This document shows positions 32,592 to 37,196 of a stretch of DNA of 64,000 nucleotides, piece by piece (positions within the stretch are counted from its first letter, which is position 1; every line of letters starts with the position of its first letter). The stretch is taken from the NCBI GenBank assembly GCA_963809665.1, contig CAWEKC010000005.1, positions 11,878-75,877 of the forward strand. The letters run 5' to 3'. This DNA is from Candidatus Gottesmanbacteria bacterium. Lineage in GTDB: Bacteria > Patescibacteriota > Microgenomatia > UBA10105 > UBA927. The notes below the pieces were generated by a model, which made no database searches, was not told where the DNA came from, and saw nothing but the letters and a program-made list of their open reading frames with translations. Both the position numbers and the translations under genes were made by a program.

Positions 32592-33013
32592 GGAGCGGTT
32601 CTTCCAAAATAAAAGTATTCACTTGTTAATAAAGTAGTTGTACGTAAGGGATAATCCATGCGGACTTCCTTACTGTTTTACAATTTGTTGGAATAAAGAA
32701 CGAATGTACGTTTGTAAACGTAAACCTTTGTTCTCCACAACATCGATCGATTAGTACGAGTAAGCTAAGCACCTTACGGTGTGTACACTTCTCGCCTATC
32801 AAACCCGTATTCTCCGGGTGATCTGTAACGATTCTTCATCTTGGGTTGGGCTTGGTGCTTGAGATGCTTTCAGCACTTATCCCGTCCGGATCTAGCTACC
32901 CAACGTTGCCTGTTGTCAGACAATTGGCACACCAGGGATCCGTTCCTCCCGGTCCTCTCGTACTAGGGAGAACTCCCCTCAAGAATCTAACGCTTGCACA
33001 GGATAGAGACCGA

Positions 33014-33325
33014 CAAATTTGTTAATCTGAATGTCGCCATTCAGTTCGGACTATATCTTCCACGCCTCATCGGCGGGTCTGACATATAGTCTCTGAGGGG
33101 TCCGTCGTATGACAGACTTCCCTGCTGATTGTCTGCATTGAACGATTTTTACTCGTAAAAGTACGTTCAAATACTCAGAGTTTCCAGCAAATAGTCAGAT
33201 TTACACTTTGCACAACATTGCGCAAAGTATGCTTTCAAAATATAACAGTAATAATTCTCGATGGAGTTTCCAAAAAACGTCTGAAAGCGGACAGCTCTTC
33301 TTACGTACGGTCGTACGTATTGTCT
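33014..33325 (-). mobile_element. group I intron (ORF-less) at 23S position ~L2593 (E. coli numbering)
   Basis: It interrupts GAGACAGU|UCGGUC. It contains Q-like AAUCAGCAGG, R CCUCAGAGACUA and S AAGAUAUAGUCC core elements, followed by a P9 GCGA-tetraloop hairpin. It ends with G. Confidence 0.6.
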
Positions 33326-33981
33326 ACTGTCTCACGACGTTCTGAACCCAGCTCGCGTACCCTTTTAACCGGCGAACAGCCGGACCCTTGGGACCTTCTC
33401 CAGCCCCAGGATAGGATGAGCCGACATCGAGGTGCCAAACCGCCTCGTCGCTATGGACTCTCGGAAGCGATCAGCCTGTTATCCCCGGGGTAGCTTTTAT
33501 CCGTTAAGCCCGCTACCTCCCACGAGGTATGCGAGGATCACTAACACCTACTTTCGTACCTGCTCGACTTGTATGTCTCGCAGTCAAGCTGGCTTATGCG
33601 TTTGCACGACAAGTCCTGATTTCCATTCAGGATTAGCCAACCTTTGTACGCCTCCGTTACACTTTTGGAGGCAACCTCCCCAGTTAAACTGCCCACCAGA
33701 CAGTGTTCTTCTCCCGGATTTTTATGCGGGAGTAAGTAAGATTTCGTCATTCCAAAGAGTGGTATTCCATGTTTCGCCCGAAGGCTCCCACCTATTCTCG
33801 ACAGTCAAAATAACGTCCTCAGTGCCAAGTTACAGTAAAGCTCCACGGGGTCTTTTTGTCCATGTGTAAGTAGGCCGCATCTTCACAGCCATTTCAATTT
33901 CGCCGGGTAACAGTTCAAGACAGTCACTAAGTCATTCTACCTTTCGTGCAGGTCGGAACTTACCCGACAAGGAACTTCGCT

Positions 33982-34258
33982 CATAAATCGTGTTAGCTTC
34001 ATGTCGCCATGAAGATCAGACTATATCTTCTCGCCGATGTGATCGGGATCGCACGTGTAGTCGTTGAGGATTTCTCGATATTGTTATCGAGATCTTTCCT
34101 GCTGATTGACTCCACTCGAACAGATTATTACCTTGTGGTACTGTTGATATTCAGAGTTATTCCAGCATATAGTGCAATTTTTCTATATACCCACTTTCCT
34201 ATTTGCACGGTGAATATACGAGAGGTTTGGCTACCTCACTATGGCAGCGAAAATATCT
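33982..34258 (-). mobile_element. group I intron (ORF-less) at 23S position ~L1931
   Basis: It interrupts CUAUGGU|AGCGAAGUUCC. P1 is formed by exon CUAUGGU with intron GCCAUAG, giving a U.G pair at the splice site. Q AAUCAGCAGG, R-like UCAACGACUA, S AAGAUAUAGUCU, P9 GCGA hairpin. 3' end ...GAUUUAUG. Confidence 0.6.
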
Positions 34259-34272
34259 ACCATAGAACAGTT

Positions 34273-34982
34273 CACTTTGTTATATACTCCGGTTGGTTAC
34301 GTAATCTCATAGTCGCCTATGAGGTCGGACTATATCATCTCCTGATTACATCGGAGGTCGAGCGTATAGTCTCTGAGGATTCTTGAAGAGGAAATACATC
34401 GTTAATACCATATTTTCTTGTTCTTCCTTTTCCTTCATTGATTGTTTCCCGAAGAAGAAGGATTTTCTTTAACCCGGATTGAGTTCTATGCTCCCCTCTC
34501 TCCATCAAATCGGCGATCTTGCAAAAAATCGCAAAATTTCGCTTTTTTGACTGGGAAAGGACCGGATATCGTCGAAAATACGGAATAACGTGCTTGATTA
34601 AATCGTCCGGATTCGTAGCATCAAATGAATGAAGTCCGTCCCGTTTTCGAACCTTAATAATCCCGCATTGAAGTTCATCCTTCAGTATTTGTAATATTGT
34701 CGGATCCTTCTGCGATACATTAAAGCTCATGACGACTTGCCAGTTGACCTTATAGTCAGCTTTCCGTCGTAACGAAACGTTAAAACTTCCCTCACCTTCT
34801 ACAAACCCGGCTAAGAAATAACCAAGTTTTTCCTTTTTCAAGTCTTTCCTGCTGATTTGCTGCACTGACCGCATTGTCACCAGTATATCTGGTAGCGTCA
34901 GATACTTCAACCGTTCGCTTTTCCGCGACGGTACAGCTCTTCCAGCATTTAGTCAACTTTTACAACTACAAAACTGTATTTT
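34273..34982 (-). mobile_element. group I intron at 23S position ~L1917 carrying a LAGLIDADG homing endonuclease ORF
   Basis: It interrupts GUAACUAU|AACUGUUC (H69). Q AAUCAGCAGG at ~34855 lies inside the ORF 5' end. R AUAGUCUCUGAGG and S GAUGAUAUAGUCC follow at 34363/34327. It ends ...CAAAGUG. Only 14 nt of exon (34259-34272) separate it from the L1931 intron. Boundaries are +/-2 nt because of an AA ambiguity. Confidence 0.6.
34335..34910 (-). CDS. LAGLIDADG family homing endonuclease (single-motif), intron-encoded
   Basis: LAGFVEGEGSF motif in a ~190-aa protein, located inside the 23S rRNA L1917 intron. The real start may be an internal Met (for example MRSVQQ). Confidence 0.85.
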   Translation of the reverse strand: MKYLTLPDILVTMRSVQQISRKDLKKEKLGYFLAGFVEGEGSFNVSLRRKADYKVNWQVVMSFNVSQKDPTILQILKDELQCGIIKVRKRDGLHSFDATNPDDLIKHVIPYFRRYPVLSQSKKRNFAIFCKIADLMERGEHRTQSGLKKILLLRETINEGKGRTRKYGINDVFPLQESSETIRSTSDVIRR

Positions 34983-37196
34983 ATAGTTACTGCTGCCGTT
35001 CACCGGAGCTTAAAAAATCGGCTTCTCTCTTGCGAAAGTTACCAACCTTTTTTAACTTACCGGCACTGGGCAGGTGTCAGCCCCTATACGTTGCGTTTCC
35101 GCTTCGCAGAGACCTGTGTTTTAGTTAAACAGTTGCTTAGTGTCGTGTGTTGAAACCCGGATTGCTCCAGGCAAGGCATCTCCCATAAGTTACGCCTAGT
35201 TTTTGTTGCCGAGTTCCTTTAACTGCTGTCGCCCGCTTGCCTTGGTATACTCTACCAGCGCACCTGTGTCGGTTTGTGGTACGGAAAACATATGCTTCTC
35301 AACGGAAATTTTCTCGAAAACAGAACTATCTCTGTTGCCCTCGCCTTGCGGCTCAGACTTCCCTACTTCTCAATTAATCGCAATAACGGATTTACCAGTT
35401 ATCACTATTTCGAAGCTTGGCGGCCAACGAATCAACCGCGAGACCAATCCTCTTTTGTCAATCCTTTGAGTCTTAATTAGCATACACTTGTAACGGAATA
35501 TAAACCGTTTCTACATCGAGCTACGCCCCCCATAGGGGCCTCGCCTTAGTTCCGACTAACCCGAAGTCGACGAACGTTGCTTCGGAAACCTTGCGCATTC
35601 GGCATGAAGGATTCGCACCTTCAAACGCTACTCATTCCGGCATTCTCACTTCTGTCCGCTCCAGCTGCCCTCACGGGCTGGCCTTCACTGCTGAACAGAA
35701 CGCTCCCTTACCACTTACTCCCGATAAATCGGGAATAAATTTCAATCGTCGGTAACATACTTGAGCCTCGATCATTTTCGGCGCCACGGCTTTCGTCCAG
35801 TGCGCTGTTACGCTTTCTTTAAAAGGTGGCTGCTTCTAAGCCAACTTCCTGGGTGTTTTAAAACCATGACTTCCTTAACCACTTAGTATGTATTTAGAGA
35901 CCTTAGATGTGAATCTGGGCTGTTGCCCTTTAGACACACGCGCTTAGCCGTGCATGTCTGACTGGCCAGGTACGGACGAAAGTATTCGGAGTTTGATTAA
36001 TGCGCGTTCCTTGCGAAACTCACATCATTCAGTGCTCTACCCCTTCGTACGAGTGACTGACCGCTATACCTAAATATATTTCAGGGAGAACCAGCTATCT
36101 CCAGGCTCGATAGGCATATTACCCCTAACCACAAGTCATCTCACAGATTTGTAACTCTGAAGAGTTCGGGCCTCCACCCATCTTTCGATAGGCTTCACCC
36201 TGCTCATGGTTAGCTCGCCCTGGTTTCGGGTCTACCGCCTGCTGCTAGTGTTTCGCCCAATTAGGGCTCGCTTTCACTACGCCTCCTCAACTCGCGTTGA
36301 TTAGACTTGCAGTAGATCGGTAACTCACCGGATCATTCTTCAATAGGCACGACGTCATCTATCTTGCGATAAACTTCGTCTGTTTGTTAGCTGACAATTT
36401 CAGGTACTATTTCATTCCCCTTCCGGGGTGCTTTTCACCTTTCCCTCACGGTACTTGTTCACTATCGGTGTATTCATGTATTTAGCCTTGGATCGTGGTC
36501 GACCCAGATTCCCACAGACCCTTCGTGGTCCATGGTACTTAGGAACCAATTAGCGGAAATTATCATGTCGAATACGAGGCTTTCACTCTCTCTGGCCGCC
36601 TATTCCGAGGCGTTCTTCTACAACAATTTCATCACATATCACTGGCCCTACAACCCCAATCCTTGCGGATTGGTTTAGGCTGTTCCGCTTTCGCTCGCCG
36701 CTACTGACGGAATCTCTATTGATTTATTTTCCTCACCTTACTGAGATGTTTCAGTTCAGATGGTATCCCACACAACACTATGACCATCTTTCGATAATTT
36801 TTATGTTGTGCTCCCCCTTGCGGGGTGGGTTGCCCCATTCGGAAACCGTCGGATCGGTGGATTATAGCTCCTCCCCGACGAATATCGCTGCTATATACGT
36901 CCTTCCTCGGCATGAATACCCTGGGCATCCATTGTCAACTTGTAGCGTTGCAGAGAACAAAGGTCGCAATCTGCTTTTGGCAAATTGCACTTTGTTCTTT
37001 CTCCAACAAAATTGTTATGCAGTAAGAAATAATCCGAAGGATTACCCCTTACGATGCAACTACTTGTTTTTCAAATTCTTTCCATAATAGGAATTGCACC
37101 TACACTATGGAAAAGTCGTTAAATTTTTAACGTGCTGCGCTAAAAAGTTATGCGTAGTAAGGCAGTACCCTGCCCTAGTACCCATAACCTTTCCAG

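Follow-up and report, generated by a model that had tools for sequence, protein, structure and literature searches.

Three group I introns of one subfamily at positions 1917, 1931 and 2604 of a 23S rRNA gene from a member of the Patescibacteria

What are the three long insertions that interrupt the 23S ribosomal RNA (rRNA) gene on contig CAWEKC010000005.1 (assembly GCA_963809665.1), would they be removed from its transcript, and did they arise from one another within this genome? The gene lies in a 64,000-nt stretch of that contig (positions 11,878 to 75,877), which we refer to as the window. A preliminary description of this DNA had read the insertions as homologous group I introns, one of them with a LAGLIDADG homing endonuclease gene, and had taken their likeness as a sign of intragenomic spread of one intron family. 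The analysis described here leads us to the following reading, to which we give a probability of about 90%: the host, an uncultivated, ultra-small bacterium of the candidate phyla radiation (CPR) and most likely Candidatus Gottesmanbacteria, carries in its 23S rRNA gene three group I introns of a single subfamily, at Escherichia coli positions 1917, 1931 and 2604, which are predicted to splice and to belong to a homing system.

Rfam confirmed the 23S rRNA gene that had been placed at 32735 to 36958; it moved the extent to 32731 to 36955 and supplied the strand, which had not been given. The unspliced gene measures 4225 nt, compared with 2926 nt for the spliced form and 2925 positions in the Rfam model, and it is 67% identical to the E. 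coli 23S rRNA across the aligned columns of a MAFFT alignment. Insertion sites were numbered by MAFFT alignment to an E. coli 23S copy of 2906 nt (locus L001). This copy is offset by +2 relative to the standard numbering, and the offset was subtracted before the sites were named. It was checked at two positions: in helix 69 (H69), GUAACUAU is expected from G1910 and was found at 1912, and in the GAGA loop of the sarcin-ricin region, A2654 was found at 2656. The gene is made up as follows, with introns designated by the E. coli position that precedes them and paired regions of the ribozyme by P numbers.

32731..36955, minus strand: 23S rRNA gene, three introns included (Rfam RF02541 LSU_rRNA_bacteria, 2131 bits, model positions 1-2925)
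34983..36955, minus strand: exon 1 (E. coli 1-1917), with its 3' end ...GCAGCAGUAACUAU in the H69 loop (MAFFT and sequence)
34982..34273, minus strand: L1917 group I intron, 710 nt, after GUAACUAU (U1917), with the endonuclease gene in its P6 loop
34259..34272, minus strand: 14-nt mini-exon AACUGUUCUAUGGU (E. coli 1918-1931; sequence and E. coli alignment)
34258..33982, minus strand: L1931 group I intron, 277 nt, after the mini-exon AACUGUUCUAUGGU (U1931), without an open reading frame (ORF)
33326..33981, minus strand: exon 3 (E. coli 1932-2604), with 3' end ...GUCGUGAGACAGU (sequence and E. coli alignment)
33325..33014, minus strand: L2604 group I intron, 312 nt, after GAGACAGU (U2604), ORF-less
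32731..33013, minus strand: exon 4 (E. coli 2605 to the 3' end), beginning UCGGUCUCUAUCC (sequence and E. coli alignment)

The insertion lengths, the junction sequences and the 14-nt exon all agree, by MAFFT and by inspection of the sequence, with those reported previously. At all three sites the 5' exon ends in U and the intron ends in G. The L1917 and L1931 junctions can each be slid by 2 nt, and only the position given here yields both U at −1 and a terminal G. The ligated products are predicted to read ...GUAACUAU joined to AACUGUUCUAUGGU and then to AGCGAAG..., and, at the third site, ...GAGACAGU joined to UCGGUCUC...; the intron-less 1917 site has the sequence ...GCAGCAGTAACTATAACTGTTCTATGGTAGCG.... 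The name of the third site had to be changed. It had been labeled L2593 and described as near the sarcin-ricin region. However, GAGACAGU corresponds to E. coli 2597-2604 and ends at U2604, and the site is therefore L2604. The true L2593 site follows U2593 (...AACGU on its 5' side and CGUGAGACAG... on its 3' side), 11 nt upstream of the third site of the window, and the L2593 introns of other genomes form a clade apart from the third intron found here. The L2604 site lies in helix 93, adjoining A2602 in the peptidyl-transferase region, and some 50 nt separate it from the sarcin-ricin loop (2653-2667) downstream.

Membership in group I was judged with Rfam model RF00028, for which the curated gathering score is 50 bits; this check had been proposed in the preliminary description. 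The L2604 intron scored 69.9 bits and the L1931 intron 63.6 bits, both over model positions 1-253. We then aligned a set of 23 introns with MAFFT, comprising the three window introns (L1917 after removal of its ORF in silico) and 20 ORF-less relatives, and counted pairs explicitly over P3, P4, P5, P6, P7 (treated as a pseudoknot) and P9. In this set, 98.4% of the cells were paired, compared with 27 to 39% when the partners were slid by 1 to 3 columns, and none of 500 shuffles matched the observed pairing values. Double-sided changes were present in 15 of the 32 pairs (5 of 6 in P3, 3 of 4 in P5 and 6 of 7 in P9), and P4, P6 and most of P7 were invariant. With RF00028 scores above the gathering score and a covarying P3-P9 core, the insertions are supported as group I introns and not as expansion segments; an expansion-segment placement or a missing P3-P7 core had been named earlier as the outcomes that would speak against introns, and the pairing found here points the other way.

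The pairings at the splice sites could be drawn for each intron, with a U·G pair at the 5' splice site in every case. L1917 has the P1 AACUAU/GUAGUU (guide GUAGUU at 34969-34964) and the P10 AACUGU/ACAGUU (ACAGUU strand at 34977-34972). The P1 of L1931, CUAUGGU/GCCAUAG (guide GCCAUAG at 34245-34239), is present as first described, and is accompanied by the P10 AGCGAA/UUCGCU (UUCGCU strand at 34251-34246). For L2604, P1 is GACAGU/GCUGUC (guide GCUGUC at 33295-33290) and a candidate P10 is CGGUC/GACCG (GACCG strand at 33312-33308). P3 is AUUGCAC/GUGCGAU in L1931, where P7 contains one C·A mismatch, and UCUGAC/GUCAGA in L2604, which also has P2 and P2.1 hairpins. P9 spans 34323-34306, 34014-33997 and 33044-33027, and the terminal G is at 34273, 33982 and 33014, in L1917, L1931 and L2604, respectively. 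The near-identical Q, R and S core elements and the GCGA P9 loops noticed earlier are found in all three introns, as are near-identical P4'/P7/P7' strings. The core motif GATATAGTCYGA has exactly three exact occurrences in the window, one per intron. When up to one mismatch was allowed, a search for which 0.41 matches were expected by chance returned a fourth match (one mismatch) at 23243, which is probably due to chance.

In the pathway that we propose, each intron would fold into its P3-P9 ribozyme core within the primary transcript, and its internal guide sequence would pair with the last 6 to 7 exon nucleotides to form P1, with the U·G wobble at the junction. Attack of exogenous guanosine on the 5' splice site would follow, after which P10 would align the 3' exon, the terminal G would dock, and the exons would be ligated into a continuous 2926-nt 23S rRNA. 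A working ribosome would require removal of the introns, since they interrupt the H69 loop and the peptidyl-transferase region.

The opposite fate would be that the insertions are not spliced at all, being either RNase III intervening sequences cut without ligation, which would leave a fragmented 23S rRNA, or retained expansion segments. Intervening sequences of the RNase III type do occur at other sites in bacterial 23S rRNA genes, including those of CPR (PMC11270868), and splicing at the present locus is predicted from the DNA sequence. We nevertheless find this account hardly credible, given that the group I covariance-model scores exceed their threshold, that the P3, P5 and P9 helices covary, and that each insertion combines a guide complementary to its own 5' exon with a U·G junction, a P10 and a terminal G. 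Moreover, the H69 loop and A2602 are universally conserved centers of the ribosome, in which a break or an insertion of 300 to 700 nt is not expected to be tolerated.

The 710-nt intron had been reported to encode a LAGLIDADG endonuclease, and this was confirmed.

34335..34874, minus strand: LAGLIDADG homing endonuclease gene, single-motif, 179 aa, counted from the conserved ATG (Pfam LAGLIDADG_1)

The maximal ORF (34335..34910, minus strand, 191 aa) begins at a TTG at 34910, and residues 33-132 of it match Pfam PF00961 (LAGLIDADG_1) with an E value of 2.8e-20 and 73.6 bits, compared with a cut-off of 23.1. It holds the single motif LAGFVEGEG, with Glu at the catalytic position as read from the sequence; the frame has no internal stops and ends in UGA at 34337-34335. 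The ATG at 34874 is conserved in the orthologue from locus L063, in which the frame upstream of this ATG is closed. The ORF starts in P5'/P6, runs through P7, P3' and P8, and stops just 5' of the 3' strand of P7. Comparison with the L063 orthologue gave a ratio of nonsynonymous to synonymous substitution rates (dN/dS) of 0.149 overall and 0.111 in the domain body; the gene is intact and under purifying selection. Among the candidates scored from a large protein database, 953 homologues had E values of 1e-5 or lower; the best 120 of these 953 were 69 to 93% identical, and one was named a LAGLIDADG homing endonuclease, from Ca. Woesebacteria. The best matches in the PDB were the halves of I-SmaMI/I-OnuI-type enzymes (E values of 1e-39 to 1e-41, whole chain), compared with about 1e-16 for single-domain archaeal rRNA-intron enzymes such as PDB 3e54. 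Based on the dN/dS values, the homologues and the structure matches, the endonuclease looks functional and of the homodimeric type. The I-SmaMI/I-OnuI-type enzymes (PDB 4lq0, 4z1z, 3qqy and others), which are the closest solved structures, are two-domain monomers of about 300 aa from fungal mitochondrial genes, whereas the window protein, with 179 aa and one domain, aligns to each of their halves and would therefore have to dimerize. Presumably as a homodimer, the L1917-encoded protein would cut intron-less 23S rDNA at 1917, and repair of the break would copy the intron in; such homing would follow the transfer of DNA between cells.

The overlap of gene and ribozyme takes more than one form. 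The invariant ribozyme string AAUCAGCAGGAAAG (P4'-P6) encodes ...NQQER... at the endonuclease N terminus in L1931 and L2604 relatives, and in the L1917 gene of the window (34792-34956, minus strand) AAUCAGCAGGAAAG is read in another frame, as QQISRK. The endonuclease genes of different sites thus read through one and the same core element, but not in the same frame.

Several points weigh against the reading of three introns that splice and home. We infer both splicing and endonuclease activity at this locus from sequence. The L1917 intron by itself scores only 25 bits with RF00028, because a 455-nt ORF insert in the P6 loop splits the ribozyme. The two halves of its ribozyme share 82% identity with the L1917 intron of locus L118, which has no ORF and scores 63.2 bits, and the status of the window's L1917 intron as a ribozyme rests on this homology and on the fit to the covarying core after in silico removal of the ORF. 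It is uncertain whether the endonuclease gene starts at the ATG at 34874 or at the UUG that lies near 34841 in the stem of P6. Finally, the 3' tails of the L1931 and L2604 introns are short and without the post-P9 extensions of most relatives, and these two introns may therefore need a protein cofactor instead of being fully self-splicing.

Taken further, this last point becomes a separate account, in which the introns are real and yet not autonomous, at least one of them needing a protein to splice, which could be a host factor or, in the role of a maturase, the LAGLIDADG protein. In addition to the missing extensions, the C·A mismatch in P7 of L1931 is in its favor, and LAGLIDADG proteins can serve as maturases (PMC11270868). 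However, the catalytic core retains all of its helices intact, in agreement with the family consensus, and we regard such dependence as unlikely. Compact group I introns of 250 to 310 nt are commonly self-splicing. More doubtful still is a scheme in which the splicing of L1917 and L1931 would be coordinated, L1931 and L2604 would rely on the L1917 LAGLIDADG protein as a maturase, and intron removal would serve as a checkpoint on ribosome production from what is probably a single rRNA operon; CPR rRNA genes are usually single-copy (PMC11270868). Nucleotides 1-6 of the mini-exon enter P10 of L1917 and nucleotides 8-14 (the last 7) enter P1 of L1931, so that the exon is almost wholly taken and splicing of the two introns would need coordination. 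This geometry, together with the missing post-P9 extensions, is the whole basis on which the scheme rests.

If the three introns are so alike, did one of them give rise to the others? Recent spread within the genome would mean that one intron was copied to two other 23S sites in its own lineage and that two of the copies then became ORF-less. Part of what suggested this stands: the introns belong to a single structural subfamily, L1931 and L2604 are the ORF-less pair, and the P4, P4'/P6, P7 and P9-loop strings are near-identical among the three. In a neighbor-joining tree, the 1917, 1923, 1931, 2262 and 2604 lineages form one subfamily clade, separate from the 2593/2500/2504/2656 clade. The subfamily occupies several 23S sites, and site changes must therefore have occurred at some time. 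What does not follow from the likeness is that the spread was recent.

Core identities were determined for a set of 41 ORF-less introns over 185 well-aligned core columns; the tree was built from 185 columns without bootstrap and was used only for nearest-neighbor statements backed by identities and BLAST. Each window intron proved closer to introns at the same site in other genomes than to its neighbors in the same gene. L1917 had a core identity of 0.86 with L063 and 0.82 with L118, compared with 0.65 and 0.70 with the other window introns; L1931 had 0.82 with L063, compared with 0.65 and 0.63; and L2604 had 0.81 with L036, 0.78 with L060 and 0.77 with L063 and L113, compared with 0.70 and 0.63. 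The range of 0.63 to 0.70 within the gene thus lies below that of 0.77 to 0.86 between same-site introns, and the P1/P2 regions match same-site introns only. Across the set, mean core identity was 0.68 for same-site introns of different genomes, 0.58 for cross-site introns of one genome and 0.53 for cross-site introns of different genomes. Recent site switching was sought across the family and none was found, the best cross-site pair reaching only 0.77 over about 175 core columns. The Q/R/S strings are invariant throughout the subfamily, in at least 23 aligned and at least 120 detected members from many phyla, and are therefore not a sign of recent copying. In addition, L063, with exons only 81 to 89% identical to those of the window, holds the same three introns at the same sites, and the arrangement must therefore predate the window genome. 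Together, these results largely refute a recent intragenomic event, which we consider very improbable; the three introns are old site-specific lineages common to relatives, and none is a recent copy of another.

The host belongs to the CPR/Patescibacteria, with Candidatus Gottesmanbacteria as the most likely assignment. RadA from the window is 73 to 85% identical to proteins named Ca. Gottesmanbacteria, and the nearest 23S rRNA genes are from metagenome-assembled genomes (MAGs) labeled "Patescibacteria group bacterium," L112 (86 to 94% exon identity) and L063 (81 to 89%). Intron content differs between these closest relatives. L063 (1978-7106) shares all three introns, at 87%, 83% and 77% identity for L1917, L1931 and L2604, respectively, and has a fourth insertion of about 633 nt near E. 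coli 2449. L112 (4629-7864), which has the nearest 23S rRNA gene of all, is without the L1917 intron; its L1931 intron measures 612 nt and contains a LAGLIDADG ORF, and the contig breaks off 11 nt short of the 2604 site. LAGLIDADG-motif ORFs were found in further same-site relatives, making three loci for L1931 (L112, L022 and L101) and five for L2604 (L019, L047, L044, L051 and L068), and all four of the ORFs scanned matched LAGLIDADG_1. Since same-site relatives carry such ORFs, the L1931 and L2604 introns of the window plausibly lost their endonuclease genes, as in the usual homing-endonuclease cycle, although we infer loss as opposed to a gene never gained. They would then be ORF-less members of lineages that have endonuclease genes elsewhere.

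The wider distribution was surveyed with a signature scan for the family P7'-P9 string GATATAGTCYGANCTNNNNGGCGAC, using one genome per species, which matched at least 120 contigs. The subfamily signature, consisting of P7' GATATAGTCYGA and a P9 with a GGCGAC loop, was present in at least 120 species-representative genomes. Among the matches listed, the hosts were mostly CPR/Patescibacteria, and the others were Planctomycetota, Acidobacteriota, Solirubrobacterales, various MAGs labeled Proteobacteria, Ca. Parabeggiatoa and a DPANN archaeon. Recurrent sites in the loci scanned were approximately 1917, 1923, 1931, 1951, 2262, 2449, 2500, 2504, 2584-6, 2593, 2604 and 2656. Counts in these loci were 21 insertions at L2604, 17 at L1931, 15 at L2593 and about 7 at L1917.

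Some of the loci from this survey deserve separate mention. The 23S rRNA gene of Ca. Parabeggiatoa (L038) reached 95 bits with RF00028, the signature was present in the 23S rRNA gene of a DPANN Pacearchaeota (L077), and a Faecalibacillus locus (L031) held a group I intron of 92 bits without rRNA. Genomes of 0.6 to 0.8 Mb labeled "uncultured Gammaproteobacteria," such as L118 and L060, have 23S rRNA genes closest to those of CPR, and the label may therefore be wrong. A single 23S rRNA gene in L107 (MAG DBS1-1.bin116) has at least five insertions, near E. coli 2262, 2500, 2532, 2593 and 2656, and its introns are only 40 to 62% identical to one another in the core.

How does the locus compare with known systems? 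Of 348 CPR 23S rRNA genes in a published survey, 82% contained insertions, as many as 16 in a single gene, and 45% of the insertions were recognized as group I introns (Tsurumaki et al. 2024, J Bacteriol, PMC11270868). In that study the recurrent CPR sites were named 23IS1 to 23IS14, and LAGLIDADG_1 genes were concentrated at 1917, 1931, 1952, 2593, 2604 and 2657 (23IS6 to 23IS8 and 23IS12 to 23IS14). CPR insertions are removed from transcripts according to Brown et al. 2015, as cited in PMC11270868. The window shares with these introns the host group, positions 1917, 1931 and 2604, ribozymes with or without a single-domain LAGLIDADG_1 protein, and the presence of several per gene, and we see no difference of substance. 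A literature search combining "L2604" with "group I intron" returned nothing; the site is named "position 2604" in PMC11270868. The locus is thus a further instance of an already known pattern, with catalogued sites and a catalogued host group.

The same survey provides the best experimental model for the window enzyme, by analogy. I-ShaI, from a CPR bacterium (Ca. Shapirobacteria), cleaved its own insertion site and formed homodimers (PMC11270868). By description, it is, like the window enzyme, a protein of about 19 kDa with one LAGLIDADG_1 domain, and its gene lies in a group I intron of a CPR 23S rRNA gene; its site, however, is 23IS7 and not 1917, and its target sequence is therefore unlike that of the window enzyme. 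Outside CPR, the 23S rRNA gene of Synechococcus sp. C9 contains L1917, L1931 and L2593 introns, each of which encodes a single-motif LAGLIDADG protein, and its L1917 ORF extends from P6 through P7, P3 and P8 (Haugen et al. 2007, PMC1995217). That gene and the one described here have in common three group I introns, an L1917/L1931 pair 14 nt apart, single-motif LAGLIDADG proteins and the layout of the L1917 ORF. They differ in the third intron, which in Synechococcus C9 occupies the I-CreI site, 2593, and carries P7.1/P7.2 extensions, whereas that of the window lies at 2604 and belongs to the same subfamily as L1917 and L1931; they also differ in that all three Synechococcus C9 introns encode an endonuclease, compared with one of three here. 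By description, bacterial L1917 introns at the same site measure 743 to 774 nt, compared with 710 nt in the window, and encode endonucleases of 168 to 181 aa, compared with 179 aa (PMC1995217). One of them is the 774-nt intron of Thermotoga subterranea, with a 168-aa endonuclease, from a host of another phylum (PMC1995217).

The 23S rRNA gene is flanked by two other RNA genes on the same strand.

32468..32584, minus strand: 5S rRNA, downstream of the 23S rRNA gene (Rfam RF00001, 77.2 bits)
37196..37269, minus strand: transfer RNA (tRNA)-Ala(UGC), upstream of the 23S rRNA gene (ARAGORN and Rfam)

With Rfam, no 16S rRNA gene was found in the 64-kb window. The tRNA-Ala(UGC) is of the kind usual in the 16S-23S spacer, yet the 16S rRNA gene is absent here, and the operon therefore appears to be split, with the 16S rRNA gene unlinked or more than 27 kb away. 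The next gene upstream of this tRNA is a 512-aa ORF (37534-39072) without an NCBIfam match. Two Rfam matches in this region, to Trp_leader (37312-37388) and to group-II-D1D4-4 (36943-37105), fall far below their gathering scores with weak E values (0.12 and 0.83 for the pair) and were dismissed as chance. Elsewhere in the window, a tandem pair of tRNA-Ala genes with anticodons CGC and GGC occupies 13616-13772 on the minus strand, with 10 nt between them. Within the 23S rRNA gene itself, four extra segments of 9 to 26 nt relative to E. coli (36627-36652, 35714-35733, 35469-35477 and 35401-35410, minus strand) follow E. coli positions of about 286, 1186, 1418 and 1471, here in the uncorrected numbering of the copy used, and resemble the usual variation in helix length of a divergent CPR 23S rRNA.

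Intron-bearing CPR rRNA genes are missed or mis-sized by annotation pipelines and PCR surveys, and the exact exon and intron map given here allows the true 2926-nt 23S rRNA to be extracted; beyond correct annotation, the locus is of little importance. It adds a 1917/1931/2604 set with one active-looking endonuclease, as judged from its sequence, and two ORF-less partners, a combination that fits the accepted cycle of gain, degeneration and loss of homing endonuclease genes. The survey, with at least 120 contigs from many phyla and site-specific lineages, supports horizontal homing over within-genome copying as the main way in which these introns spread.

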